Below are positions 17,937 through 41,662 of a stretch of 64,000 bases of DNA, in pieces. The notes beneath the pieces are model-generated. The model was not told the origin of the DNA, searched no databases, and saw nothing but the letters and a program-made list of their open reading frames with translations. How positions within the stretch are numbered: position 1 is the first letter of the stretch; every line of letters starts with the position of its first letter. Position numbers and translations under genes: made by a program. Source of the stretch: an uncultured Gemmatimonadaceae bacterium (GTDB lineage: Bacteria; Gemmatimonadota; Gemmatimonadetes; Gemmatimonadales; GWC2-71-9); the NCBI GenBank assembly GCA_964578865.1, contig CAZOES010000007.1, positions 16,169 to 80,168 of the forward strand. The letters are read 5' to 3'.

Positions 17937-18090
17937 CTGCTTTCACCCAGAGACGCAGAGACACAGAGGTCGAGTTGGAATCCGACTAACCGGCAGGGCG
18001 CCGCAATGCGCACTCCCCTCCGCGCCACTCTGCCTCTGTGGTGAAAACGGCAGTTCCCCGAGCCGGCCCGGAACCGTTAGAATCCCGCCC

Positions 18091-18837
18091 ATGAAAATTG
18101 CGACCTGGAATGTCAACGGCATCCGCGCCCGTGCGGGCCAGCTCTGCGAGTGGCAGCAGCGGGAGCGGCCGGACGTGGTCTGCCTGCAGGAGCTCAAGGC
18201 CGAGCTGGCTCAGATTCCCGAGTCCTGCATGCTGGCGGACTACCACGCCTTCTGGCACACTCGAAAGGGTTACTCGGGTGTGGCACTGCAATTCCGGAAG
18301 GAAACCTTTCCGGAGGAGCCACGCTTCAGTCATCCGGCCTTCGACTTCGAATCCCGGATCGTGCAGGCTGAGTTGGGCGACTTGGTCATCGCCTCGGTCT
18401 ACGTGCCCAACGGCGGCAAAGACTACCAGGCCAAGGTCGATTTTCTGCGGCGCATCGCCGACTGGACCGGGCACCTCAAAGCCGCCGGGCGGCAACTGGT
18501 GCTCTGCGGCGATATCAACATCGCCCATACCGACATGGACGTGCATCCCAAAGAACGGAAAGCCGAGGTCATCGGCCAGCGGAAGGAAGAGCGGGATCTG
18601 TTCGACGCGATCATGGCCGGCTGGCTGGTCGATGTGGGCCGGGCCGCCGATCCGGAGAACCCCAGCCTCTTCAGCTGGTGGCCCCCGTGGCGTGACATGC
18701 GGGGCCGCAACATCGGCTGGCGCATCGATTATATCCTGGCTTCGCCAGGCATCGCCGGCCGGATGCAGGGGTGTGTGGTGCAGGCGGGCGTGGGTACCAG
18801 CGATCATGCGCCGGTAGTCCTCACCGCCGAGCGATAA
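18091..18837 (+). CDS. xth: Exodeoxyribonuclease III
   Basis: MKIATWNVNGIRAR..., SDHAPV at the C-terminus. Classic EEP/Xth family. Confidence 0.9.
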   Translation: MKIATWNVNGIRARAGQLCEWQQRERPDVVCLQELKAELAQIPESCMLADYHAFWHTRKGYSGVALQFRKETFPEEPRFSHPAFDFESRIVQAELGDLVIASVYVPNGGKDYQAKVDFLRRIADWTGHLKAAGRQLVLCGDINIAHTDMDVHPKERKAEVIGQRKEERDLFDAIMAGWLVDVGRAADPENPSLFSWWPPWRDMRGRNIGWRIDYILASPGIAGRMQGCVVQAGVGTSDHAPVVLTAER

Positions 18838-18898
18838 CTAGACCGGGTGCGCGAGAAACCGGTTGAACGCCAGCTCCACGACGGGCCCGCCCGGGATC

Positions 18899-19591
18899 TC
18901 AGGAGACCCACGCAGGGTGATGCACTCCCGGGGTCTGGCGGCCCGGTTTCGGCTGGGTCCCCACCAGCAGGCGCAACACCTCGGCGTCGCTGGTGGGGCT
19001 GAAGTCGCCGTACCACTGGCCAACACTGCCGAATGGCTCCGGGGTGGCGAGGGTAACGCAGGCATCGGCCAGCCGGGAAATCCTGGCATAGGCTGCGCTC
19101 GACATCACCGGCGCCGCGGCGACCAGCCGGTCGGGGCGGCGTTGGCGAATGGCCCGGAGCGCCGCCAGCATCGAGGATCCGGTGGCGACCCCATCGTCCA
19201 CCAGGATCACCGTGTTGTGACTCAGGTCGGGATAGGGCTGGTGACCCCGGTAGACCGCTTCGCGCCGGGCCAATTCGTGCCGCTCGACCGCCGCCACCCG
19301 CTGAATGGTGTCCAGCGAGATACCCAGCTGATTCACGACCATCTGGTCGATCACAACGGTGCTGCCGCTCGCAACAGCGCCCATCGCGAACTCCTCCTGC
19401 CCCGGCACTCCCAGCTTCCGCACGACGAACACGTCCAGTGGGCAACTGAGGGCCTTGGCTACCTCGCTGGCTACCGGCACGCCGCCGCGGGGAAGACCGA
19501 GCACCAGCAGGCCGGGACGACCTGCCAGCCCTCCCAACCTTTCACCCAGCTGACGACCGGCATCGAATCGATTCTCGAAAAGGGGTGTCAT
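18899..19591 (-). CDS. Phosphoribosyltransferase (type I PRT fold)
   Basis: PRPP-binding loop VILVDDGVATGSSM. Start moved to ATG 19591 (MTPLFENRFDAG) with GGAGG upstream. Confidence 0.8.
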   Translation of the reverse strand: MTPLFENRFDAGRQLGERLGGLAGRPGLLVLGLPRGGVPVASEVAKALSCPLDVFVVRKLGVPGQEEFAMGAVASGSTVVIDQMVVNQLGISLDTIQRVAAVERHELARREAVYRGHQPYPDLSHNTVILVDDGVATGSSMLAALRAIRQRRPDRLVAAAPVMSSAAYARISRLADACVTLATPEPFGSVGQWYGDFSPTSDAEVLRLLVGTQPKPGRQTPGVHHPAWVS

Positions 19592-19857
19592 GCCGACCTC
19601 CGGTTGGCTGCTTCCACGCCGGCGACATCTGCGGGTGACTGGGAGACCCAGGCGGGATTCGCCGTACTCCATACCTAGTGCAACCGTCGTGAAGCGGATG
19701 TGAATCGGATGGGAGAGTTCCTCCGGTCTGAACCTTGCCCAGTGGTACCGGTCTCGGCGGCCGCTCTGTCCCAACTCTTGCTCACTTCCGGTTCACCCAG
19801 ACTTCACAACCGCTTCCCCAGATTGACAATAGACCTTGCTCCATTCGGAGGTGGCTC

Positions 19858-20262
19858 ATGGTACCCACAGTCGATCTCATCCCCGAGGCGAACCCAGTCG
19901 AGCCGGGTATCTCCGCGCTGGCTCAGAGCGGCGCCGCGCTTCTCGCCGAGCTGGTTCGGCGCAGCGAGGTTAGTCCCCTGGGCGTCTGGGATCGCTGGTG
20001 CATCGCCGACGCGATCGCCTGCGAGTTCCAGCCAACCGTCGATGCCCTCAAGCACTGCTGTGAACCGTTGGACCCCGGGATGCGTACTTCCCTCCCGGCC
20101 TTCCTGAAGCAGCTCAACGATTGCCGGGTCGACCTGGCGGTTCTGGCGCTGGATCCGGCGGGAACCGCCGGGTTCAGGGCCAAGCTCAAGCTGCTCCGGC
20201 AACGCTGGCTGAACGGCACCGCCACGCTGGGTTTGCTGGCAGGTCCAGGCGGCGTACGATAA
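19858..20262 (+). CDS. Hypothetical protein
   Basis: ATG 19858 is preceded by GGAGG (19848-19852). Codon composition is coherent and no family is recognised. Confidence 0.4.
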   Translation: MVPTVDLIPEANPVEPGISALAQSGAALLAELVRRSEVSPLGVWDRWCIADAIACEFQPTVDALKHCCEPLDPGMRTSLPAFLKQLNDCRVDLAVLALDPAGTAGFRAKLKLLRQRWLNGTATLGLLAGPGGVR

Positions 20263-20290
20263 GCCGGTGCCCTACCGGTGAGCCGGATTA

Positions 20291-21124
20291 ATGGCGTTCC
20301 GTTTCGAAGCGCGCGGCTCGTTGCGCCGCCAGCCGAGCCGACTGGCGCGTAAGGAGTTGAATCGGGCGCTCCGGGCCCTGGCGACCTCTCGCCCGGATTC
20401 CGACGCAATCCACCAGGCTCGCAAGTCTGTGAAGATGGTTCGGGCCTTACTCCGGCTCATCGGGTATCATGGCAAGACCAAGCCCGCCCACATAGAACAG
20501 CTCCGGCTGGCCGCCCATAGACTCGCGGGCTTGCGAGACGCGGACGCGATCTTCGCCACACTGGAGTTGCTCCAGAGCGAATCTCCCGGTGTGCTCACCG
20601 CAACCACGCTGCGGTTCCCGAGGATGGCGTTGGAAGCTCGGCGGCAGGGTGCCCGCGCGCGGGCCGGTCGCGCCATTACCGGGGCGCGAACTGCGCTTGC
20701 ATCGCTGGCAGAGCAGCTCCCCGACCGAGTGGAAGGACCCCGGCGGGTCCGCGAACTCCACGCCGGCGTGGCCGAGGGATACCGGCGGGCTTGGAAGGCG
20801 ATGAAGGGTCTGAGTCCGGATTCGTCAGTGACCCGGTTCCATCGCTGGCGCCGGCGAGTGAAGGAACACTGGTATCACATCAGGCTTATCCAGGACCTTG
20901 ATGCCGATGCGAAAGTGCGGGCGGGGAAGCTTAAGAAACTGGAGACGCTGCTGGGTGAGGCCCACAACCTTGCTTTGCTTCGCGCCGTGATTCTCGCCGG
21001 CCCCGAGCGCTTCGGCGACGGCCGCACCAGGGCTCTGCTGCTGGGCTGCATCGATCAGAGCCAGTTCGCCCGGCGAACCCAGGCGCTAGCGACCGGACAC
21101 CGCCTCTTCACGTCGCCGGAGTAG
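20291..21124 (+). CDS. CHAD domain protein
   Basis: All-helical with repeated conserved His/Arg blocks (IHQARKSVKMVRALLRL; HRWRRRVKEHWYHIRLI) typical of CHAD. Confidence 0.65.
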   Translation: MAFRFEARGSLRRQPSRLARKELNRALRALATSRPDSDAIHQARKSVKMVRALLRLIGYHGKTKPAHIEQLRLAAHRLAGLRDADAIFATLELLQSESPGVLTATTLRFPRMALEARRQGARARAGRAITGARTALASLAEQLPDRVEGPRRVRELHAGVAEGYRRAWKAMKGLSPDSSVTRFHRWRRRVKEHWYHIRLIQDLDADAKVRAGKLKKLETLLGEAHNLALLRAVILAGPERFGDGRTRALLLGCIDQSQFARRTQALATGHRLFTSPE

Positions 21125-21138
21125 GACCCGCCGCTTCC

Positions 21139-23193
21139 TTACCATACCCGCACCCTCTCCGCTTTGGGCAAATACAGCCGGTCGCCCGGCCGGACATCGA
21201 ACGCCGAGTACCAGGCGTCGAGATTGCGCACCGTGGCAATCCGATAACGCTCGGGCGGATGGTTGTCAGTGGTCAGCACTTTGGCCATCGCTCCATCACG
21301 GATCTTTCCCCGCCAGCTCCGCGCGAATCCGATGAAAAACTCCCGGTCCTGCTGGCGGACGTAGGCCCCATCGCTGCTCCTCGGGCCCAGTGCCTTCCGG
21401 TATGCCTCAAATGCCGTCGCCAGTCCGGCCAGATCGGCCACGCTCTCGGTCAGGGTGAATTCGCCATTGACGGCCAGGCCCGGCTCAGGCTGATAGCCGC
21501 CCAGCTGGGCCACCAGCGGCGCGGCTGACCGCTCGAAGCCCACGCTGTCTTCCGCAGTCCACCAGTGTCGCATCCGATAGTCGCTGTCCCAATCGGCACC
21601 CAGCCGGTCGACGAAGTGGCTGATCTCGTGACCCACGATGGCGCCGATGGCTCCGTAGTTCGCCGCGTCCGAGGCGGCAGGATCGAACTTGGGTGCTTGC
21701 AACAGCCCCGCCGGAAAGTTGTAGGAGTTCTGCTGGAAGTTGAGAACCGCCGCCACCCGCTGCGGCGCGATCCACCAATCGGTTGGATCGACCGGCTGAT
21801 GGAGCCGGGCCAGATTCCGGCGATACTCCATCTCGGCAACTCTCTGTTGGTTGCCGACCGGATCGGTGGGGTCGATCTGGAGCTGGGAGTAGTCGGCTGA
21901 GCGCGGCGGTTGCACCACGCCAAAGTAGATGTTGGCGATTTTCTTATGGGCTTGGGCCTTGCTGGCGGGAGACATCCAGGTCACTTCGTTCAGTCGCTGG
22001 TGAAACGCGGCAAGTACGTTGGCCACCATTGTTTCGAGCCGAGTCCGTTGGGAGGCCGCAAAGTACCGATCGACATACATCCGCCCAATCGCATCGGACA
22101 TGGCCAGCTGAGTTGCGTCGGCCGCCTGCTGATCCCTCGGCCGCCGGTCCGGATCCGCCCCGGCTGCATTGCCATGCATCGTCCTTGCCGCCTCAGCAAA
22201 GGTGCTGGGCAGAACACCGGAATGACGGTCGAGCAGGTGGAAGCGCAAGTAATCTTTCCACACGTCCAGCGACACCGCTGACACCTGAGTGGCCAGCCCT
22301 TTCAACGCAGCCGGCTGCCACACACCGATGCGGTCGACCTGACCCAGCCCGGCCGCGCTCAAGAATGCGGTCCAATCCATTCCCGGCGCCGACCGGTCGA
22401 ACTCATCCCGATTCCAGACATTGTCCGAGTTGCGGTCGTTGGCCGAGGCTTCCCGGCTCGCCTGGCTCGCAGCCAGGGCAGTCTCCAGCCGCATGACGGC
22501 AGCAGCCCGCCGATCGGCATCGGCTAATCCAGCCTGCCGCAGCATGTGGCCGATGTAGTGCTGATACTCCCCCCGCAGCGCCACCATGCGAGGCTCAGTA
22601 CTGGTGTAATTCTCCCGATCCGGCAAACCGAGTCCGCCCTGCAGCAGGAATGCGACGTAGGTCTTCTCCCCATGGATGCTCGGCTCTACCGACAGCCCCA
22701 AAAGCCAGGACGATCGATAGATCCCCCAGTTGAGAGGATCGACATCGGCGCCGACGTTTTTCCCCAGTCGGGCGGCAAGCTGGGTCTTGTTGCTCAATCG
22801 ATCAATGCTGTCCAGCAACGGTCGCAGAGGCTTGAGCCCATTCTTCTCGATGGCGGCCTGGTTGGCGTAGGCAGCGCGGTAATCCGCGACTTTGCGCCCC
22901 AGTGATCCAGCCGGACTCTGGTCTGCATCCTCCAGCACCCGAGCGAGCTGGCCCTGGGTGATCTGATTGATCTCCAGCCGCGCACTCCACCGCTCGAGCC
23001 CGGTGGGGATCTCGGTGGATTTCAGCCAGCCGCCGTTGGCCCAGCCGAAGAAGTCGTCTCCCGGCCGGATGGTTGAATCCACGCCGGATTCCAGGTCCGA
23101 AAACGACCGGTTTGGCGACGCCTGAGCGATTAGCGTGGAGCAGGGGGAAGCGAAGAGCAGGGCGGCGAGCAGAATCGATGAGGTTTTTGGCAT
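21139..23193 (-). CDS. M13 family metallopeptidase (PepO / endothelin-converting-enzyme-like), secreted
   Basis: HExxH motif in GAIVGHEISHFVD. ESVADLAG matches the ENxADxGG-like block. Signal peptide MPKTSSILLAALLFASPCSTLIAQA. Confidence 0.9.
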   Translation of the reverse strand: MPKTSSILLAALLFASPCSTLIAQASPNRSFSDLESGVDSTIRPGDDFFGWANGGWLKSTEIPTGLERWSARLEINQITQGQLARVLEDADQSPAGSLGRKVADYRAAYANQAAIEKNGLKPLRPLLDSIDRLSNKTQLAARLGKNVGADVDPLNWGIYRSSWLLGLSVEPSIHGEKTYVAFLLQGGLGLPDRENYTSTEPRMVALRGEYQHYIGHMLRQAGLADADRRAAAVMRLETALAASQASREASANDRNSDNVWNRDEFDRSAPGMDWTAFLSAAGLGQVDRIGVWQPAALKGLATQVSAVSLDVWKDYLRFHLLDRHSGVLPSTFAEAARTMHGNAAGADPDRRPRDQQAADATQLAMSDAIGRMYVDRYFAASQRTRLETMVANVLAAFHQRLNEVTWMSPASKAQAHKKIANIYFGVVQPPRSADYSQLQIDPTDPVGNQQRVAEMEYRRNLARLHQPVDPTDWWIAPQRVAAVLNFQQNSYNFPAGLLQAPKFDPAASDAANYGAIGAIVGHEISHFVDRLGADWDSDYRMRHWWTAEDSVGFERSAAPLVAQLGGYQPEPGLAVNGEFTLTESVADLAGLATAFEAYRKALGPRSSDGAYVRQQDREFFIGFARSWRGKIRDGAMAKVLTTDNHPPERYRIATVRNLDAWYSAFDVRPGDRLYLPKAERVRVW

Positions 23194-29568: not shown

Positions 29569-30663
29569 TTAGCCGCGATGAAACGCCCGAGGCAACGTGA
29601 TGGTGAATGTAGCGCCCCGGTCCACTTTACCCTCTCCGGAGATCGACCCGCCGTGCCGTTGGATGATCCGTTTGGTCAAGGCCAGCCCGACCCCGGTTCC
29701 CTCGAACTGTTCCGGTGGATGGAGCCGCTGGAAGACCCCGAAGAGCTTGTCGGCGAAGCGCATGTCGAAGCCGGCCCCGTTGTCGCTAACCTTAAAGATC
29801 ACCTGGTCTTTCTCGAGACGAGAGGTGATTTCCAGCCGTGGATCACTCCGATGATGGGTGAACTTGGCGGCATTGCTGACCAGATTGAAAACTACCTGGC
29901 GCAGCAAGGCAGCGTCCCCCATCACCGTCGGCAGGTCCCCGATTTCCACCCTGAGCCGGCGTCCGATTTCGGTCTGCTGGACTTCGCTCACTACTTGGCG
30001 GACCAGGGCTTCCATATCGACCGGCACCCCAGTAATGGAAGTGCGACCCAGGCGGGAGAAATCGAGCAGGTCGTCGATCAGTTGGCCCATCCGCAGGCTG
30101 TTATCCCTGACGATGCCCAGGAGGCGCTGACCTTCTTCGTCGAGCGAAGCCTGATGATCGTCCAGCAGAATTCGAGAGAACCCGTTGATGGCCCGGAGCG
30201 GCGCCCGGAGGTCATGGGAGACCGAGTAGCTGAAGCTTTCCAGCTCCTGGTTGGCAGTCTGCAACTCCTGATTGGCCCGCGCCAGCGCCGCCGGAGTCGG
30301 CAGAGCCACGGCTTTGGGCAACAGCGGGACCAGCGCGATGGCGGTGCCCACCGAGGCGGCGGCGGTCAATGCCTTCACACCTCCGGCTACCCAATAGCTG
30401 GGGTGCCAGAGGGTCCAGATCTCCATCAAGTGAGTAGTCCCGCAACCGGCGATGAAGATGGCGAACAACCAGAAGATCCAGTTGAACGGTACATCCTTTC
30501 GTTTGCGGACGAACCAGACCAGGCCGATCGGGATCGAGTAGTAGGACAGGGTAATGACCGAGTCGGAAATCAGGTGCAGCAGGACCAACCCCCGCTGCCA
30601 CAGGTAGCAGTAGCCGTGGGGATAGAATTCGGCCATCTCCGCGGGAAGCTGGGGGAGGAACAT
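29569..30663 (-). CDS. Sensor histidine kinase with N-terminal ethylene-binding-domain (ETR1-like) 3-TM module
   Basis: The N-terminus LISDSVITLSYYSIPIGLVWFVRKRKDVPFNWIFWLFAIFIAGCGTTHLMEIWTLW...VKALTAAASVGTAIALVPLLP aligns with my memory of Arabidopsis ETR1 residues about 20-110. The aligned blocks are ISD, Y.SIP, FV.K, CG.TH and K.LTA. An H-box (SHDLRAPL) and an HATPase domain (DNGAGF, GTGVGL) follow. ATG 30663 has GGAGG upstream. Confidence 0.8.
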   Translation of the reverse strand: MFLPQLPAEMAEFYPHGYCYLWQRGLVLLHLISDSVITLSYYSIPIGLVWFVRKRKDVPFNWIFWLFAIFIAGCGTTHLMEIWTLWHPSYWVAGGVKALTAAASVGTAIALVPLLPKAVALPTPAALARANQELQTANQELESFSYSVSHDLRAPLRAINGFSRILLDDHQASLDEEGQRLLGIVRDNSLRMGQLIDDLLDFSRLGRTSITGVPVDMEALVRQVVSEVQQTEIGRRLRVEIGDLPTVMGDAALLRQVVFNLVSNAAKFTHHRSDPRLEITSRLEKDQVIFKVSDNGAGFDMRFADKLFGVFQRLHPPEQFEGTGVGLALTKRIIQRHGGSISGEGKVDRGATFTITLPRAFHRG

Positions 30664-30874
30664 GAGGCACCTCCAACCCGGAGTGGGCCGGGACAAGGAC
30701 CACACCAGGCGGGTTGTATTCAGGGGGGTATCGTAGATTAGAAGGTATGGTCTTGATGGCAAGGCCGGCCAGGCCGGCTCATCAACCCGGGTGCATGATT
30801 TCTCGTGAAGCTGCCGGGGATGTAACGACTCCTTGCCCGGTGAGCGGGTGACTGGTACCGTGGGTTATCCCCTT

Positions 30875-33260: not shown

Positions 33261-34709
33261 TCAGCGGCCGGGAATGTTCCGCCCGTGACAGGCGGCACAA
33301 GTCTCGGGATTCTTCCGGCGCAACCGATCCGCATCGAAGCCGGGCCCGTGGGGATTGAACCCACGGGTCTGGCTGGAATGACAGGCCAGGCAATCACGCT
33401 CCGAGTGACAGGTGACGCAGGTCTCGAGATTCTGGCGAGCCGCCTGCCCATGACCCAGGACGAAGACGGCCTGGGCATCATGGAACTTGCCGCTCAACAG
33501 TCCACCGCTGGATCCAAAGCCGGACTGGGTATGACAGGAAGTGCAGAAGGCAGCCTGGTTATGGCACTGGCTGCAGTCGCTCTGCCGATTGTAAGCCGCC
33601 GCTGGATGGCGGGAAAGAAACCCGGCCGGATGATAGCTGTCGCTGCCGGCCGGATTGGGACGATGACACTCGAGACATTCGCTTCGGGCGTGACAGGCAT
33701 TGCAGCTCCTCGGCGCTGAGTTGGCCAGGGAGGCGTGGCGATCCGCGAAGTCGCCGGTATGAGTCGCCGGGCGAGTTCGCACGATCTGGGCTCCCGAGCC
33801 CCGTCCGGCACCCGCCGGTGGCAAAGCCAAGGCAACCGAGGGATTTGAACGGTGACAGCTCACACAGCTCGGCTGGGTATGACAGTTGGCGCAAGTCGCC
33901 TTGCTGCCGCGGCTGAGACTCCCATGCTTCCGCTGGAAATTGGCCTGCTGGTGGTCCGCCGGTGACTTGAGCTCCGCGCCGATCGCCAGCGAACGGGGAT
34001 CGGATTCCAGGGCCTGAATTGCCGCGACTTCCGGCGCGTTGACGTGACACTGGGTGCAGAACTCCCGAGCATGACAGGTGGCACAGCTCTGGGCCACGCC
34101 TCCACCTTGCCTTGCCTGGGCGCCATGGCCGGACGAGAGCGAAAAACCGGGCGCTTGATGCGAGGACGGGGTGGGGAATCGGGCCACCCGTTCCCGAGGA
34201 AGGCTGACCGCCTTCGCGAGGGTCAGGTGACAGGTGGCGCAAGTCGAGTCGGGGGCGGAGTAGTGGGCCACCCGGATCTGGTGGCAGGTCATGCAGGCGG
34301 CCTGCACCGGTGCAGCTTCAACCGCCATCCAAGCCGCGCCAGCTTGGCCATGGCACTCCATACACGAGAGGGTCGAATCCCGCCCAGCTCGGCCGTGCCA
34401 GGCCTCCCCGTGGGCCGAGTGGGTGAAACGAAGATTGGATACTCTCGGCTCCGGCGGTTGCCAGCTTACCTCGCGCAACGGCTTTCCCGCGACCTCGAGT
34501 TTTCCGTTGTGACAGTTGGCGCAGGTCACCGGCTGGGGGTAGAGAGGCTGAGCCTTTGCGGCGGCACCCGCGTGGCAGGTCTCGCAGCTGACGAACAGCT
34601 TCCGATGCTGCCAATGATCGAACCCGTCATCACGGGCAAGCCGGGCGCTGGTGGCGGCGCTCAGCAGGACTCCCAGCAAGAGCAGCCCGGCGGTGGTGGT
34701 CCGCTTCAT
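33261..34709 (-). CDS. Secreted 16-heme c-type cytochrome (doubled-CXXCH repeats)
   Basis: I counted 16 CXXCH motifs, five of them in close doublets such as CATCHAREFCTQCH and CVTCHSERDCLACH. Start moved to ATG 34709 (MKRTTTAGLLLLGVLLSAATSA, a signal peptide), which forms an ATGA overlap with the upstream gene's stop codon. Confidence 0.85.
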   Translation of the reverse strand: MKRTTTAGLLLLGVLLSAATSARLARDDGFDHWQHRKLFVSCETCHAGAAAKAQPLYPQPVTCANCHNGKLEVAGKPLREVSWQPPEPRVSNLRFTHSAHGEAWHGRAGRDSTLSCMECHGQAGAAWMAVEAAPVQAACMTCHQIRVAHYSAPDSTCATCHLTLAKAVSLPRERVARFPTPSSHQAPGFSLSSGHGAQARQGGGVAQSCATCHAREFCTQCHVNAPEVAAIQALESDPRSLAIGAELKSPADHQQANFQRKHGSLSRGSKATCANCHTQPSCVSCHRSNPSVALALPPAGAGRGSGAQIVRTRPATHTGDFADRHASLANSAPRSCNACHARSECLECHRPNPAGSDSYHPAGFLSRHPAAAYNRQSDCSQCHNQAAFCTSCHTQSGFGSSGGLLSGKFHDAQAVFVLGHGQAARQNLETCVTCHSERDCLACHSSQTRGFNPHGPGFDADRLRRKNPETCAACHGRNIPGR

Positions 34710-36202
34710 CGCGTGCCTCGACGCCTGACGGCCGGTGGCAGCGGGATCCGATCCGCGCCTGAACCAAGCAGCCATGAGATGCTGGCGGCCAGACGGGTCT
34801 GATTCCAGTCGAACGCACCCGAGTCGGGGCGGCGATGCTTCTCCCAGTAGCGGGTGGCACTCAGGCCGAAACGGAGCTGATCGGTGGCCTGGAGGTCGGC
34901 CTGGATGCCTGCCCAGTCGAGGGTCACATCGTTGTAGCGGAACTCGAGGGGCCTGGTTAGATGCCCGCCATCCGCCGAGAGGGAAATCCGGCGGCCATCC
35001 CGCCAGCTCAATCCCGCGTCCCATCCTTTCGAAGCGGCGCCCGGCCCGAACTCGGCGTGATAGCCGGCCCGGGCATGCCATGACGGTCGGATGGCCCAGC
35101 CTGCGCCCGCATTCCAGCGCCAGCCCCGGTCCTCCACAGTTACCAGTCCGTTGCGAACTTCAGCGTCGGCATACCAGTAGCGCTCGGCGGAGCCCGACAG
35201 ATCCAGGCCTTTGAAGGGTGTCGCCGAGGCCGCCCAATTTGCCGCGGTGTACCCCACCGGACTGAAGACACCCCAGATGGTCCACAGATCGAAATAAGGC
35301 CGGTAGTAGCGCACCCCGGCGCTGCTGCTCCAGCGGGTCCGGCTGTAGCGCAGAGACAGATCGGAGGTCCCCCACTGGTCCCGGGCCAGATCGTATTCGG
35401 AGCCGCCGGTCAGCGACCAGTGGGGGTCCAACGGGCGAAGAGTTGCGCTGACCCCAATGCGCTCCGAAACAAAGTTCCTGGTTTCCCGGTCTACCTCCCG
35501 CTGGTATTCCACGCGGGCGTCGGCCCGGGGGGTGTTCCATTCGGCGCGGCCGCCTGCCACCAGTTGGCGCCGTTCCGGCTGGAAGTCATCGAGGGGGTTG
35601 AGCGCCGGGCTGGTTACCGGGAGGGCCGTGCTCCTCGCCAGTCCCAGGCCGGCGTAGACTCGGGCCGACAGACCGAGGTGATCGCTGCGCGCCGTGAAAC
35701 CGGCGCCATCGTACCCGAGGTAGCCCAACCGGCCTGATTCGAGCTGACGGCCGGCCTGGGCGCTGAACCAGTCTCCCGCGTAGTCCACATAACCTTCCAG
35801 CAGTTGCACCGCCGGGTCCAGTCCGGGCCAGCGCTTGTCTCCCTGGAGGTCGAAACCCAGCCGGGCATTGGCGTGGATGCTGACTCGCGGAAGCCCGATG
35901 CCCCAGGCCGTGAGCGCCACCGAAGTCACCATCGGGGCGCTTCGCACTTTCTCGCCCGGTCGGTAGAAGGTGCAGTTGATCGCGCCGGGCGCGCAGTCAG
36001 CCGCGAATCCGTCGGACGTTTCCCGGCCGCCTCCGGCGGTTACCACCGTATTGGCCAACGCCACGCTATCGAGCCGCACGCCGCGATACGCCACACTCTG
36101 AACTCTCGAGTCCAGTCGCAGGAGGAATCCCTGGCATTGGGCACTTTGGGCGGCAGCACAGATCATTGCCACGGTCGCCAGCACCGGAGCTGTTCGTCTC
36201 AC
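34706..36202 (-). CDS. Porin-like outer-membrane beta-barrel protein (no heme motifs)
   Basis: Signal peptide MRRTAPVLATVAMICAAAQSAQC. The sequence is rich in alternating aromatic/Gly/Arg/Asp segments (SLRYSRTRWSSSAGVRYYRPYF, RWNAGAGWAIRPSWHARAGYHAEF, DWAGIQADLQATDQLRFGLSATRYW). The GTG start 36202 has GGAGG 7 nt upstream and a GTGA overlap with the upstream stop codon. Confidence 0.6.
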   Translation of the reverse strand: MRRTAPVLATVAMICAAAQSAQCQGFLLRLDSRVQSVAYRGVRLDSVALANTVVTAGGGRETSDGFAADCAPGAINCTFYRPGEKVRSAPMVTSVALTAWGIGLPRVSIHANARLGFDLQGDKRWPGLDPAVQLLEGYVDYAGDWFSAQAGRQLESGRLGYLGYDGAGFTARSDHLGLSARVYAGLGLARSTALPVTSPALNPLDDFQPERRQLVAGGRAEWNTPRADARVEYQREVDRETRNFVSERIGVSATLRPLDPHWSLTGGSEYDLARDQWGTSDLSLRYSRTRWSSSAGVRYYRPYFDLWTIWGVFSPVGYTAANWAASATPFKGLDLSGSAERYWYADAEVRNGLVTVEDRGWRWNAGAGWAIRPSWHARAGYHAEFGPGAASKGWDAGLSWRDGRRISLSADGGHLTRPLEFRYNDVTLDWAGIQADLQATDQLRFGLSATRYWEKHRRPDSGAFDWNQTRLAASISWLLGSGADRIPLPPAVRRRGTR

Positions 36203-38049
36203 TGGCCACCTCCGCTCTGGAGCAGCTGAGGGCGATAGTCAGCTGGAGTGCGGAGCAGGTGGCAGCTGCTGCACTCCGCCGGGCCGTAGTGATCCTGCTG
36301 GGGCGAATGGCAGGTGAGACAGAATGAGCGCCGAGGCTCGAGGGCCGCGACCCGCGCCCGAGTATGGCAGGCATCGCAGCGGACATGGGCCAAGACCGGC
36401 CGGGCGTGCGGGGCGGTAATTGCGTCGGTCCGATGGCAGGTGGCACAGGCCCGCCCCGCTTCATGGTGCGACTCATGGCAACCCTGGCACCGGGTCACCG
36501 AATCGGCGGGCGCCATGGTGACCGGCGAGCTGTGGCAGCTGATGCAGGCCCTTTCGCGGTGACTCGGGTGAGAGAATCCCACGGTTCGGGTCCGGGGGCC
36601 GTGATCCTTGACGGCAACCTGGACCAGGACGGACTGCAGCGGTGCCAGTCGGGTCTCCGAGTGGCAGCTGGCACACTGATTGGTCTTGGGGTCCTGGTGA
36701 TGACAGATCTGGCAGCCCCGGGGTGGCTCGAAAGTGAGCTTGCTTTTCTGGGCTGAGGGGACGTGACAGGTCAGGCAGGGCAGCTTCTGGTGCCTCGCAT
36801 GTTCGAACGAATCCGCCGGCTGGGAATGATTCGGCGGCGGCTGAGGCGCCGCCGCCGCGGGTTCAAAGGGGGGCCCATCACCTTTCACTTTTTGAGGCCG
36901 CTCTTCGGCGGGCTCGGGGGCCATCGAGTTGCGCAGCGTCTTGAGGGTGTCGAAGGGCAGGGGAGGGACCGGTCCCTCGGTCCTTCTCGCCCTGGCCCGT
37001 TCGTGACATCCGGTGCAATCGCTGGCGTCCACTCGAGCGGCGTGGGGCAGGTGACAGGTGAGGCATCGCTCACCGACCCGGCGGTGCTGGGCTCCGGTGT
37101 GGAACAGGTCCTTCCGCCAGTCGGCATGGCAGTTGGCCGAAGAACAGCTGGTGCGGGCCTCGGCCGGGGTCTTTTGTTTGTGGGGATCGTGGCACATGCC
37201 GCAGGTCCCGTTGTGGGGATCCTTGGCGGCGTCGAAGTCCGGTAGCCGCTGCTTCATCTCGTGACAACGGAAGCACTGCTGCAGGGCGGGGCGCAGCGTG
37301 CCGGCTGCCGAATCGCGGGTGGCCAGGGCTGGCACCGAGGCGGTGAAGATGTGGCAGCCCGCGCAATGGAATTCACCCTGCGTGGCCATCTTCCCTAGTT
37401 TGATCCGGGTCTCCGACTCCGCATGACAGCCCGACTGGCCGCAGGTCTGATTGACCGGGACGAAGCGGTGGGCGGTGCGGGCGTGGCAGGTCAGACATTC
37501 CTTCTTGCCGACCAGCGCGGATGAATCGGATTCGAGATGGGTGCGGTGGCCGGCGGTGGCGGCGATGGCCTGCCAGGTCTTCTTCGCGTCCCCCTGCACG
37601 TGGCACTGCTCGCAGATCTGGCGGGGGACTTTGGCGTGTTCCGGAATCGTCGAGTCGCGCACGCCCGACATCCATAGCACCAGCTTGACTGCCTCCTTCA
37701 CCGGCTTGAGCGGGTGACAGGCGTGGCAACTGAGGGAGTCGTGCTTCCCTTCCATCAGGGGCACGACCGTGTAGTTACCCGAGTCGGGCGGTGGCGGCAT
37801 CAGCTGCCCGCTGGGAATGAAGATGTGGCAGCCGGTACAGAACCGCTTGTCGGTCTCGATGAAGTGATTGACCTGGTACCCGCCGAACCCCGCCATCAAC
37901 AGGGCCAGAACCCCCACGCTGCCCAGTGCAAAGAGCACCGGGCGGCTTCGGGTCTTGAACCAGGTGATGATGTGTTGCCGTTTGGGCCAGAGCCAGCGGA
38001 CCAGAAAAAAGGCGATGATCCCCGCCAGCACCACGCCGCCCCACATCAC
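36199..38049 (-). CDS. Membrane-anchored multiheme cytochrome: NapC/NirT(CymA)-like tetraheme head fused to about 16 further hemes
   Basis: Two N-terminal TM segments. There are 18 CXXCH plus 2 CX4CH motifs (CGQSGCH, CSSANCH). The first four motifs (ETDKRFCTGCHIF, SLSCHACHPLKP, QICEQCH, ECLTCHARTAHRF) follow the NapC/NirT spacing as I recall it. A Pro/Ala-rich linker lies at about aa 355-405. Confidence 0.85.
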   Translation of the reverse strand: MMWGGVVLAGIIAFFLVRWLWPKRQHIITWFKTRSRPVLFALGSVGVLALLMAGFGGYQVNHFIETDKRFCTGCHIFIPSGQLMPPPPDSGNYTVVPLMEGKHDSLSCHACHPLKPVKEAVKLVLWMSGVRDSTIPEHAKVPRQICEQCHVQGDAKKTWQAIAATAGHRTHLESDSSALVGKKECLTCHARTAHRFVPVNQTCGQSGCHAESETRIKLGKMATQGEFHCAGCHIFTASVPALATRDSAAGTLRPALQQCFRCHEMKQRLPDFDAAKDPHNGTCGMCHDPHKQKTPAEARTSCSSANCHADWRKDLFHTGAQHRRVGERCLTCHLPHAARVDASDCTGCHERARARRTEGPVPPLPFDTLKTLRNSMAPEPAEERPQKVKGDGPPFEPAAAAPQPPPNHSQPADSFEHARHQKLPCLTCHVPSAQKSKLTFEPPRGCQICHHQDPKTNQCASCHSETRLAPLQSVLVQVAVKDHGPRTRTVGFSHPSHRERACISCHSSPVTMAPADSVTRCQGCHESHHEAGRACATCHRTDAITAPHARPVLAHVRCDACHTRARVAALEPRRSFCLTCHSPQQDHYGPAECSSCHLLRTPADYRPQLLQSGGGQ

Positions 38050-38234
38050 CCATGGGGGCTGCTGAAAGATGAACTGGATGAGCGTGGTGATACGGTCGCC
38101 GAACAGCTTCTTGTCGACCAGCGAGTCGACCGGATGGGGGTACAGCGAATCAGGAGACTGCGCGACGAAGCCCGCCCCGGCGAGCAGAGCTCGACCGGGG
38201 CGGGGGGAGAACAGGCTGAACCGGGAACCCTGGC

Positions 38235-39902
38235 TCAGTTGGTGCCCCTCGCGGTGGTGCCTCGAGACGCGGCGTAGGCCTTCACAATCGCCGCCTGGGC
38301 GGAATTACCCAGCTTCAGCTTGCCGCTGTTCACCGCGGCCTGGATCTGGGCCAGGATCGGGTCAGGGGCGCTGTTAATGAACCCGGGATAGCTCGCGAGC
38401 ATATCGGCGATCGAAGCCTGGAGCAAGGCCCGGTAGAGGAACGGATTGTGGACTCCGTGCGATCCGTCGGGATGGCTGGCCATTCCGTCGGCCAGCATCT
38501 GGGCATTGAAGAGGGCGCCCTTGGCCGGCGTGATCACCGTGTTGTACGGCGCGGTGGTGAAGTTGAGATCGTTGGGCTGGTTGAGTTTGACCAGGGCCAG
38601 GTAACCGGAGTCGGTGGGGAATGCATCCACGGTCTGGTTGTGGTTGACGTCCACCCAGAGGGTATGGATGTAGCCATCCCGCTCGGTCTCGAACTGGGTG
38701 AGCCGCTGCACCGCGATCGCCTCGGTGGCGTGGCAGCCCGAGCTGGTGCAGGCCCCCCACGAGCGGCTTGGTACGTCGTAGGCGCAGTTGTTGGTGTAGG
38801 TGGTATCCACCACCACCGGACTCTTGGACTGAAGACAGGGCAGCGGGTGGAACGAGTGACCGCTGAAGGTGATGTTGTTCCCCCCCGCATCCACCCCAGT
38901 CAGCTTGTTCACGTGGCAACCGGCGCAGAGCCTCGGGTTGGCACTGGAACCATGGGTGGTCAGGATCTCGGTAGTGTCATAGCTGCTTCCCGGCGGGAAG
39001 TAACCGGCGTTGCCGAGCAGTACCGGGCCCTGGGTGCCGTGCGGACCGCGCGAGGAAGCCGGGTTGGGATCTGGCGCCCGGTCATGACACTTCATGCAGA
39101 GGTTCTGGGCCAGGTTGGGGACGTCAATCGGGAACCGGAGCTGGCCGGGATAGGGCAGCCCGGTGTTGGGATCCTTGGCCGTGCCATGGGGATCGTGACA
39201 CACCACGCAGTTCTGGGGCAGCAGCGTCGTGGTCCCCTGCTCCTTGTAGATCGTGTTGACGCCCCACGCGGCCAGCGCGCCTTTGCCTTCATGGCACTGG
39301 ACACAGCTGGCGTTACCGGCTGGACTGGCCCGTAGCTGGCCGTGCCGGGAGGCTAGCCATTCCTTCAGATAGCTGTGATGCCGGGCCGGACCGGTGTCGG
39401 TGTGGCAGGCACCGCAGCTGCTGTTGGTCAGAGCCGCAGCGGTATCAATGTTGATGCTGGGGATCGGTCGGTTGCCCACCACGGTGGGATTCTTCACGTG
39501 CTCGAGCCCGGGTCCGTGGCAGCTCTCGCACTGCACGTCGTGATACGCCGTGCTCTTCACCGAATCGTAGCCCACGTGGCCGAACGGTTGATTGCCCCGG
39601 GAGTTTACGCTGTGGCAGCCGGCGCAGAAATCCTGAGCAAATCCGCTGGCCTGCAGGTCGCCCCAGGCCATCGCATGTTTGGTCTGGATCCAGTCGCCCT
39701 GCTGACCCACGTGGCAGTTGCCGCAGGTGGTCTGCTGGTCTGCCTCTTTATAGTACCCGAGGAAACCACTGGCTTCGTCGGGTGGAGTATTGAAGGGAGG
39801 TCGGTCGCGATAGACCGTGTCGGTGCAGGCCGAAAGACCGGCGATTGTTAGAAGCGCCAGTACAAGCGTCTGAGAGGCCAGCCGGGGGGTAGTTTTTCTC
39901 AT
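38235..39902 (-). CDS. Lipoprotein multiheme c-type cytochrome (8 CXXCH + 1 CX4CH) with heme-free C-terminal domain
   Basis: Lipobox LTIAGLSAC. Heme motifs: CGNCH, CAGCH, CESCHGPGLEH, CGACH, CVQCH, CVVCH, CMKCH, CAGCH and CTSSGCH. The last ~170 aa have no Cys-heme motif. Confidence 0.85.
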   Translation of the reverse strand: MRKTTPRLASQTLVLALLTIAGLSACTDTVYRDRPPFNTPPDEASGFLGYYKEADQQTTCGNCHVGQQGDWIQTKHAMAWGDLQASGFAQDFCAGCHSVNSRGNQPFGHVGYDSVKSTAYHDVQCESCHGPGLEHVKNPTVVGNRPIPSINIDTAAALTNSSCGACHTDTGPARHHSYLKEWLASRHGQLRASPAGNASCVQCHEGKGALAAWGVNTIYKEQGTTTLLPQNCVVCHDPHGTAKDPNTGLPYPGQLRFPIDVPNLAQNLCMKCHDRAPDPNPASSRGPHGTQGPVLLGNAGYFPPGSSYDTTEILTTHGSSANPRLCAGCHVNKLTGVDAGGNNITFSGHSFHPLPCLQSKSPVVVDTTYTNNCAYDVPSRSWGACTSSGCHATEAIAVQRLTQFETERDGYIHTLWVDVNHNQTVDAFPTDSGYLALVKLNQPNDLNFTTAPYNTVITPAKGALFNAQMLADGMASHPDGSHGVHNPFLYRALLQASIADMLASYPGFINSAPDPILAQIQAAVNSGKLKLGNSAQAAIVKAYAASRGTTARGTN

Positions 39903-40062: not shown

Positions 40063-40470
40063 CTAGCTTTTCGATTTCATGTATTCCACCCCGTCGGCGG
40101 TAGCGCTCCGCCAGGCGTCTTCGGTTGCCTCGGTGAACTCCGGATCGAAGCGCCCGACCGTTTCGACCAAGGCGTCGATGAACGGCTGATAGTGAGCCGG
40201 GTCAACCGCCAGCTGCTCCTTGCCGTGCCGCAACGCTACTCGGGTGAGCAGGTTAGGCTCATTCTGGTGGTGGCCATGATAGGAGAGGAGCAGGCCGATC
40301 GCGTGCTGCAGCAGCTGATGTTGACGGGGAAAGTCGGTTTTCGCGAACATCGGCTGTGCCGCCGGGCAGTTGGCGAAAAAGGTCTGGTAAAACCGGTGGA
40401 AGAAGTCAGGAGACTGCTGCGCCCGCTGGTAGCTGGCCTTGGCCAGCGCGGCGGAATCGGAGTTCATCAC
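40063..40470 (-). CDS. Single-domain globin
   Basis: 135 aa with a globin-like pattern: FFHRFYQTFFANCPAAQPMFAKTDFPRQHQLLQHAIGLLL...HYQPFIDALVETV. Confidence 0.7.
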   Translation of the reverse strand: MMNSDSAALAKASYQRAQQSPDFFHRFYQTFFANCPAAQPMFAKTDFPRQHQLLQHAIGLLLSYHGHHQNEPNLLTRVALRHGKEQLAVDPAHYQPFIDALVETVGRFDPEFTEATEDAWRSATADGVEYMKSKS

Positions 40471-40543: not shown

Positions 40544-41662
40544 TCAACGATGGGAACGCGCCCCACTCCACGCCGCCACCATTCCCGCGATCGATTCCAC
40601 CTCCGTTACCAGGGCTCGGAGCAGACTCAGCGAATCGACATAGGGCGAGAGCCGGGCGCTCTGACCCGACCAAAGCGGAAGCAGCTCCCATCGGCCGGCC
40701 GGGTCGGCCACCACCGAGAGATTTCGAATGAGATGCCGCTGTAGAGGGTAGGGGAGAATCGGGCTTCCTTCCCGGTTCAGTTCCTCCATCAACTGGTTGT
40801 GAATGCCCCGGGCCAGCCGGCCGGTAAAGCCCTTGGTCAGCCCGGTTCGGCCGGCTTCCGGCCGGTGCAGCAGGTCGCGATGCAGCGGGCTGGCTCCTGA
40901 TTCCTCGGTTTTGAGAAAGGCCGTGCCGATCTGCACCCCCTCGGCACCGAGCGCCAGGGCTGCGACTACGCCCCGCGCATCGGCAATACCTCCCGCCGCG
41001 ATGACCGGCACACTGACAGCGTCGACCACCTGTGGTACCAGCGACATCGTGCCCGTCAGGGAATCCTCAGCGGAGCGGAGGAAAGATCCGCGATGACCAC
41101 CGCTCTCGAACCCTGAGGCTGCAATCGCATCTACCCCAGCCTGCTCCAGCGCGATGGCTTCGTCCGGTGTCGTGGCGGTGCCGATCAGCAGGATCCCTTT
41201 GGCTCGGCACTCATCCAGCATCTCTCGCGGCGGAATGCCAAAGATGAAGCTGAAGATCGGAACTCTGGCGTCGATCAGCACTCGGGCCTGCCGCTCGAAC
41301 GACACTGGCGTGTAAGGCGAATAGGCCGGCTGCCCCGCGCCGAGGGCGGTGAGGTGAGGGGCCAGGGTCGCCAGGCTTTTGGCAAAGGCATCCGGGCCGG
41401 AGCGGCGGGCCCCTTCGTCCTCCATCGAGACCCAGAGGTTCATCGCAAAGGGCCGGGAAGTCAGCGCCCGGATCTGCGCGATGACCTCGCCGATTGCCTC
41501 GGGGGAATAGCTGTGGACCCCGAACGATCCCAACCCTCCGAAGTTGGAGACCAGCGCCGTCAATCGCTGCGAGGACAACCCGCCGAACGGACCCTGGATG
41601 ATCGGATAGTCGATGCCGAGTTTTTGGGTGAGGCGGTTACGAGGCCAGGCCGATTCGGTCAT
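40544..41662 (-). CDS. Nitronate monooxygenase (NMO / 2-nitropropane dioxygenase family)
   Basis: IDYPIIQGPFGG..., VIAAGGIADARGVVAALALGAEGVQIGTAFL. Confidence 0.85.
   Translation of the reverse strand: MTESAWPRNRLTQKLGIDYPIIQGPFGGLSSQRLTALVSNFGGLGSFGVHSYSPEAIGEVIAQIRALTSRPFAMNLWVSMEDEGARRSGPDAFAKSLATLAPHLTALGAGQPAYSPYTPVSFERQARVLIDARVPIFSFIFGIPPREMLDECRAKGILLIGTATTPDEAIALEQAGVDAIAASGFESGGHRGSFLRSAEDSLTGTMSLVPQVVDAVSVPVIAAGGIADARGVVAALALGAEGVQIGTAFLKTEESGASPLHRDLLHRPEAGRTGLTKGFTGRLARGIHNQLMEELNREGSPILPYPLQRHLIRNLSVVADPAGRWELLPLWSGQSARLSPYVDSLSLLRALVTEVESIAGMVAAWSGARSHR

Follow-up and report, generated by a model that had tools for sequence, protein, structure and literature searches.

The 64,000-nucleotide stretch of DNA analysed here (hereafter the window; contig CAZOES010000007.1 of the uncultured Gemmatimonadaceae assembly GCA_964578865.1, forward-strand positions 16,169 to 80,168) carries a cassette of four genes, A-B-C-D, of which the second, B (36199..38049, -), encodes a 616 amino acid inner-membrane cytochrome with 20 haem-binding motifs. 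Positions given below are those of the window, with - denoting the reverse strand. Judging from its open reading frame, motif count and full-length homologues, B is a real, conserved and uncharacterised feature. It is best read as a quinol dehydrogenase to which a tethered periplasmic electron carrier is fused, and we consider it probable that electrons enter or leave the inner membrane through B as part of a four-protein conduit that crosses the cell envelope and is conserved in uncultured soil Gemmatimonadales.

Architecture and conservation of the 20-haem protein

The haem-binding motifs of B comprise 18 CXXCH and two CX4CH, the latter being CGQSGCH at residue 203 and CSSANCH at residue 302, and all 40 cysteines of the protein are located within these motifs. 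Four haems (C71, C108, C146 and C185) are followed by seven more (residues 203-345), a Pro/Ala-rich linker and a final group of nine (residues 425-593). Only two hydrophobic segments are present, at residues ~1-23 and 35-58, and in the full-length AlphaFold2 (AF2) model the helices spanning residues 2-33 and 36-66 are the sole part predicted with confidence (predicted local distance difference test score, pLDDT, 87-95). An earlier description of the locus made from the letters alone (the sequence-only reading) had proposed two N-terminal transmembrane (TM) segments, this order of haem groups and both CX4CH motifs, all of which are borne out by the motif count, the hydropathy and the AF2 helices. 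The two helices form a TM hairpin (residues ~2-58; 37873..38046, -), delineated by hydropathy, charge, AF2 and hhalign, in which TM1 and TM2 flank a loop with a net charge of +4 (+3 to +6 in homologues). As the loop is positive and the N-terminal tail slightly negative (about -1), the distribution of charge fits a topology in which the N-terminus faces outward, the loop is cytoplasmic and the haems are situated in the periplasm.

Searched against 5.8 billion proteins, B gave 1107 matches, the best 120 clusters of which were inspected. These are full-length (~600-750 amino acids), share 49-100% identity with the query and without exception contain exactly 20 haem motifs (120/120). When 60 full-length homologues were aligned, all 20 motifs proved invariant, together with 20 further His residues; as these match the motifs in number, bis-His ligation is possible for every haem. 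Conservation is highest in the N-terminal tetrahaem head, with a mean identity of 70-86% over residues 101-200. Database entries name the protein either 'hypothetical protein' or 'cytochrome c3 family protein'. When genomes were scanned at one per species, 247 B loci were identified, and the details of loci reported here are taken from the best 80 of these. All 80 belong to metagenome-assembled genomes (MAGs) of Gemmatimonadales/Gemmatimonadota, except for one labelled Bacillota with the same cassette, and most show an uninterrupted match to query residues 1 to ~613. The exception, locus L026 in a MAG labelled 'Bacillota bacterium' (JBLMWC010000189.1), harbours a complete Gemmatimonadales-type A-B-C-D cassette with a B protein of 56% identity, and its label is most likely the result of a binning or labelling error.

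The fusion of all 20 haems into one polypeptide is genuine, since the same uninterrupted reading frame occurs in independently assembled genomes, and on this comparison of sequences an origin through frameshift or misassembly is excluded. The database occurrence of the same architecture (all of the 120 best clusters and the best 80 of 247 genome loci) answers the concern, raised in the sequence-only reading, that an assembly error might have joined two genes. The broader alternative that the single polypeptide is such an artefact, or that B is cleaved at the linker into two proteins, draws on the low complexity of the linker, on several database representatives which terminate within it and on a 1.3-kb metagenome contig with an internal stop after haem 11. 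Most of these short, 11-haem entries stop within the linker and resemble contig-end truncations, while one has a stop inside its contig, and we regard this alternative as highly improbable as a whole, although cleavage after translation would not show in the sequences compared.

Ahead of the called start, the reading frame of B continues for a further 85 codons without a stop (38050-38304, -), and these include no ATG, GTG or TTG. An N-terminal extension of ~55 amino acids (...RPGRALLAGAGF..DSLVDKKLFGDRITTLIQFIFQQPPW), which is present in most B homologues, is encoded in frame within this region (38050..38238, -), and its junction with the called protein reads …DSLVDKKLFGDRITTLIQFIFQQPPW followed directly by VMWGG. 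Candidate CTG starts are found at 38214 and at 38238, the latter overlapping the stop codon of gene A and having the sequence GAGGGG 6 nucleotides upstream. A canonical start is located 40-195 codons upstream in 62 of the 64 B loci having the extension motif, L014 and L061 being without one. The true start of B may lie upstream of 38049, and translation may begin at a non-canonical codon or make use of an internal Met.

Relationship of the tetrahaem head to NapC/NirT proteins

Haems 1-4 make up a putative NapC/NirT-like head (residues ~60-195; 37465..37872, -), as had been suggested in the sequence-only reading. A 90-sequence profile of the module was compared by hhalign with a four-sequence seed consisting of NapC, TorC and TorY of Escherichia coli and NrfH of D. 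vulgaris, yielding a match of 98.9% (E-value: 1.7e-17) over 144 columns. TM2 is aligned in register with the TM helix of NapC, as are all four haem motifs (NapC residues 17-189), the His upstream of haem 2 and the haem-4 motif C..CH..(A/V)H. A TM anchor followed by four CXXCH motifs in this order and register is likewise the arrangement of NapC, CymA, NrfH, TorC/TorY and ImoA, and TM2 of B ends ~13 residues ahead of C71, placing a membrane helix directly before the tetrahaem domain, as in NapC/NirT proteins. The match is retained at 96-97% (97.2%) when close homologues alone are used, while in control comparisons the other multihaem segments of B gave 30-40-column matches only, at 30-84%.

An exhaustive HMMER search with the head module profile, encompassing 1.84 billion representatives, recovered only 207 proteins at E<=1e-3, and by this measure the module family is small and distinct. 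Relatives which exceed the Pfam gathering threshold of PF03264 (Cytochrom_NNT; 24.1 bits) include P0232 (34.8 bits), P0209 (29.3), P0167 (28.9), P0225 (26.9), P0244 (25.6) and P0212 (24.9), of which P0167 contains 20 haems and P0212 contains 34. Some of these passing relatives carry the JGI name 'nitrate/TMAO reductase-like tetraheme cytochrome c subunit'.

A number of results weigh against the head being a NapC/NirT-type quinol dehydrogenase. B scores below every NapC/NirT model: PF03264 gives no match to the window protein at E<=1 and is absent from the precomputed annotation of close homologues (0/120), NCBIfam provides no match on the N-terminal module, and its weak NrfH match (E-value: 0.034; Bitscore: 14.2) falls at residues 255-351, outside the head. 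The top match in a phmmer search against the PDB is NrfH (2j7a_C), at an E-value of 0.44 only, and a narrow 28-sequence family profile did not reach NrfH in the PDB. By single-sequence hhalign against E. coli NapC, only haems 3-4 were aligned (93.6%). Structural prediction lends no support, as outside the TM hairpin the AF2 models are poor, with pLDDT values of 52.5 for the N-terminal module (28 sequences) and 57.5 for full-length B (60 sequences), and a Foldseek comparison with the PDB gave no match at E<=0.001. Furthermore, the first haem motif is CTGCHIF (CXXCHIF) rather than CXXCHxM, with F77 being invariant in the Gemmatimonadales clade, and it is followed by a 14-residue insertion. In view of these two features, the quinol site of B may be altered or lost.

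In NrfH, haem 1 is ligated by the Met of CXXCHxM, a residue kept in 69 of 80 more distant relatives of the module. NapC has, however, been reported as all bis-His, and the Met is therefore not indispensable. Rodrigues et al. and Zargar & Saltikov are said to place the quinol-site Lys/Asp after haem 2 at K82/D89 in NrfH and at K91 in CymA. K118 and K122 are near-invariant in the B clade but lose their conservation in the wider module family, and a G-x-R-D motif of B resembles G86-A-R-D89 of NrfH in an alignment whose register is uncertain by 1-4 residues. The spacing between successive haems also differs, at 37/38/39 residues in B versus 30/60/32 in NapC and 23/50/20 in NrfH, and B differs further in its extra TM helix and N-terminal tail and in the 16 additional haems fused to the head, where TorC adds only one (five in total). 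By remote homology, the head of B is a divergent offshoot of the NapC/NirT family and not a canonical member. The assignment made in the sequence-only reading consequently stands at the level of profile-profile comparison and of relatives passing PF03264, and falls short where direct profiles and the CXXCHxM motif are concerned.

The same evidence bears on whether B might be only a membrane-tethered periplasmic multihaem carrier or store, with a head lacking quinol activity and with electrons supplied by bc1, alternative complex III or a separate dehydrogenase. The invariant Phe in place of the Met, the insertion beside haem 1, the lack of a Pfam or NCBIfam NapC/NirT match and the restriction of conserved Lys118 and Lys122 to the clade would all accord with such a role. 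The strong conservation of the head and the retention of its TM anchor speak against it, as does the dispensability of the Met in NapC. In addition, at none of the best 80 loci does the cassette encode a further redox protein of the inner membrane, and because B is the only cassette protein with TM helices it would be the only cassette candidate for a link to the quinone pool. We consider the carrier-only alternative unlikely, and retain the reading of B as a quinol dehydrogenase fused to its carrier.

Extra haems on inner-membrane quinol oxidases are already known, as are long periplasmic cytochromes for which a span across the periplasm has been proposed, and the notion in the sequence-only reading that the quinol oxidase and the additional haems reside on separate proteins in known systems was too strong. 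ImcH of Geobacter has 7 haems, a NapC-like part and extra TM helices ahead of it, its homologues containing 6-10 haems, while CbcL has a cytochrome b-type membrane domain and homologues with 3-23 haems (PMC6295460). As proposed here for B, both join an inner-membrane quinol-interacting part to extra periplasmic haems. By description B, with 20 haems, is set apart from the ImcH homologues, and the best 150 of the 207 proteins related to the head by HMMER include none with the ImcH-like layout of three TM helices and 7 haems. The fusion is also less singular than had been supposed, as NapC-headed proteins with 10, 12, 20, 24, 30 and 34 haems are present in the databases. One distant 20-haem relative, from a genome of 72% G+C, shares 32% identity with B and has the canonical haem-1 motif CLQCHLM and the same layout of 11 haems, linker and nine haems; genes similar to C (29%) and to D (39%; 16 haems) lie downstream of it, followed by ccmF/G/H. 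A NapC-like head with 30 or 34 haem motifs is observed in P0206, P0211, P0212, P0219, P0223, P0235, P0240 and P0245, and these 30/34-haem proteins are only 650-770 amino acids in length, amounting to about one haem per 22 residues. The gene for the 34-haem P0212 (locus L088) is clustered with those for three more cytochromes and an unannotated 463 amino acid protein.

Middle module, linker and C-terminal arm

The seven-haem middle module (residues ~196-355, haems 5-11, including both CX4CH motifs; 36985..37464, -) weakly resembles the DmsE/MtrA decahaem type (TIGR03508; E-value: 6.4e-5), and a Pfam MtrC/MtrF II-IV domain match covers residues 138-236. Against the DmsE-family model, B scores 22.5 bits, A 38.1 and D 12.3, all below the cut-off of 192. 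The best PDB sequence match of haems 5-11 is 6r2q_A, a 333 amino acid multihaem chain (E-value: 6.7e-4) which we take to be MtrA of the MtrCAB complex. The PDB sequence table labels chain A of 6r2q 'Cystathionine beta-synthase', and since the aligned sequence is plainly that of a decahaem cytochrome this label is unreliable.

A haem-free, Pro/Ala-rich linker (residues ~356-414; 36808..36984, -) separates the middle module from the C-terminal haems and is distinguished by its composition, its length and its conserved motifs. Between H349 and F415, 21% of the residues are Pro and 12% Ala. Its length ranges from 55 to 141 amino acids among homologues, while the other inter-haem distances show little or no variation. 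Two motifs, PPLPFDTxKAL and ERPxKVKGDxPP, are conserved within it, with P363, F366, D367 and T368 being invariant and G390, D391 and P393 near-invariant in the 60 aligned homologues. In some homologues the motif block is duplicated, giving rise to linkers of up to 141 amino acids. The two motifs may represent docking sites.

The remaining nine haems (12-20) form a C-terminal module of three tandem c7-like trihaem units (residues ~415-616; 36199..36807, -). Pfam Cytochrome_C7 (PF14522) matches B in four stretches (E-value: 4.5e-12; Bitscore: 46 against a cut-off of 24.8), and Cytochrom_CIII (PF02085) likewise scores above its cut-off (30.4 against 22.9 bits). The c3, c7 and HmcA entries of the PDB provide weaker matches (E-values: 2e-4 to 3e-3), and in self-alignment the three units share 29-36% identity with one another. 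On these profile and alignment results the module is c3/c7-like, in agreement with the sequence-only reading. It has in common with poly-c7 proteins of the GSU1996 type, and with c3 and HmcA, the trihaem units with F-x-H-x2-H ... CXXCH contexts. It differs from GSU1996 in having three units rather than four, and in that these are tethered to an inner-membrane cytochrome, whereas GSU1996 is soluble.

A single tethered wire spanning the periplasm had been envisaged in the sequence-only reading. As the linker is haem-free and its length is free to vary, a tethered, mobile C-terminal arm would fit B better than a rigid continuous wire. The linker itself cannot conduct, so that bridging would have to rest on motion or packing of the modules, and this counts against B as a complete path across the envelope. 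MtrA, with 10 haems, measures ~8-10 nm and GSU1996, with 12 haems, ~12 nm, and a reach of B across the periplasm appears plausible.

The four-gene cassette as a putative electron conduit

Gene A (38235..39902, -), immediately upstream of B, encodes a 555 amino acid, 9-haem lipoprotein with the lipobox LSAC. Its homologues contain 9 haems in 59 of 60 cases, and in all eight N-termini inspected the lipobox Cys is followed by T(D/E)T. Gene C (34706..36202, -) encodes a secreted protein of 498 amino acids without haems, and gene D (33261..34709, -) a 16-haem secreted cytochrome of ~482 amino acids with a Sec signal, 16 haems being present in 59 of 61 homologues. The stop and start codons of B and C overlap by GTGA, and those of C and D by ATGA. 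The start of D at 34709 (MKRTTT), which overlaps the stop of C, is backed by its homologues and its signal peptide; the mechanically called reading frame for D (33261-35081; 606 amino acids) begins too early by 124 codons and runs into gene C. In all loci of sufficient length the genes follow the order A-B-C-D, with A, C and D being found in 77, 74 and 68 of the 80 loci, respectively. A scan of the cassette operon for promoters and terminators revealed nothing above shuffled expectation.

The product of gene C is probably an outer-membrane β-barrel, as suggested by its signal peptide and by Pfam matches, which are all below the curated thresholds: OMP_b-brl was matched by 17 of 31 homologues (best E-value: 1.5e-5), and LptD and Porin_4 more weakly. 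The MtrB_PioB model has no match on gene C, and a profile search against the PDB matched no solved barrel, both of which argue against the proposed conduit. The cassette as a whole nonetheless appears porin-cytochrome-like in its gene content: like MtrCAB, the Geobacter OmaB-OmbB-OmcB/Pcc conduits and PCC3, it encodes a barrel-like secreted protein together with two multihaem cytochromes, one of them secreted and the other a lipoprotein. What sets it apart from MtrCAB and Pcc is protein C, for which no homology to MtrB/PioB or to a barrel of solved structure was detectable. Some Pcc clusters do contain an inner-membrane cytochrome (PMC4245776), and the periplasmic cytochromes of PCC3, with a median of 21 haems, have been proposed to span the periplasm alongside a separate membrane protein (PMC5566968). 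This separate PCC3 protein is five-TM and dihaem-b-like, whereas B carries its membrane module within the long cytochrome polypeptide. Our literature search found no description of this cassette in Gemmatimonadota, nor of a polypeptide in which a NapC-type head is continued by an MtrA-like stretch and a tethered poly-c7 arm, with a fixed number of 20 haems, in a conserved Gemmatimonadales cassette.

From these relationships we infer a quinol dehydrogenase activity for B, an outer-membrane location for C, contacts among the partners and a bridging of the periplasm. TM2 and haems 1-4 would constitute a divergent module of the NapC/NirT type, through which electrons are exchanged with the quinol/quinone pool of the membrane. 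From this head, electrons would travel along the MtrA-like stretch of haems 5-11 to the nine-haem poly-c7 module, held in the periplasm on its flexible Pro-rich tether. The arm would then deliver them to an outer-membrane unit composed of the barrel C, the 16-haem D and the 9-haem lipoprotein A, and from there to an external acceptor. Along such a route, flow in the reverse direction would be equally possible, with metal or humic reduction on the one hand and electron uptake on the other.

An inward-operating cassette would serve electron uptake through the oxidation of Fe(II)/Mn(II) or minerals, with B reducing quinone, as has been proposed for the CymA/ImoA homologues of iron oxidisers. Cultured Gemmatimonadota are largely aerobes, which would suit this direction. 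NapC/NirT proteins have been proposed to be bidirectional (PMC6295460; for ImoA, PMC9600427), and PCC3-type clusters with ~21-haem periplasmic cytochromes have been described from oxidisers of iron and manganese (PMC5566968). On the other hand, neither the sequence nor its neighbourhood fixes the direction, and in the window the cassette is not linked to genes for Cyc2, cbb3 oxidase or carbon fixation. Inward flow as the function of the cassette is somewhat doubtful on this balance.

To return to the reading of B as a fused quinol dehydrogenase and carrier, its fullest form is that a single polypeptide links a NapC-like quinol head, through a tethered poly-c7 arm with docking motifs, to a dedicated outer-membrane unit, and that the Gemmatimonadales are unrecognised extracellular electron transferers. 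The Gemmatimonadota are not known for extracellular electron transfer, which tells against the conduit reading as a whole, and we put this full form forward tentatively, as less likely than not.

The remaining genes of the window are housekeeping and stress genes unrelated to the cassette. Gene A is directly preceded, on its own strand, by genes encoding a small globin (40063-40470; Pfam Globin, E-value: 8e-9) and a nitronate monooxygenase (40544-41662). This neighbourhood is not conserved, a V-type ATPase operon occupying the position in L002, the contig of the closest relative. Approximately 2.5 kb downstream of the cassette, past two genes for universal stress proteins, a histidine kinase (29569-30762, -) is encoded whose N-terminal membrane domain corresponds to that of the ethylene receptor (ETR1_N; PF25487, E-value: 2.9e-41). 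The L002 contig harbours a second multihaem cluster ~5 kb downstream of its cassette (17279-22040), coding for unknown proteins of 285 and 548 amino acids and cytochromes of 662 and 476 amino acids. The 662 amino acid cytochrome was considered as a paralogue of B and rejected, its BLASTP similarity being at the level of the motifs only.

How electrons cross the 20-30 nm periplasm is debated in model systems, where small diffusing cytochromes and static wires are the opposing views. If the proposed function is true, one protein would combine the tasks that are elsewhere split between CymA/ImcH and the diffusible STC/FccA or PpcA, and a naturally fused quinol dehydrogenase and carrier with its own outer-membrane module would provide a compact and genetically tractable test case. 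The B cassette would also be a candidate part for engineered electron conduits, and the series of NapC-headed proteins with 10, 12, 20, 24, 30 and 34 haems could be used to probe the relation between haem number and envelope geometry. The Gemmatimonadales are widespread in soil, mostly uncultured and not considered electroactive; for them it would mean a respiratory capability in which these abundant soil bacteria use a hard-wired, self-contained four-protein conduit.

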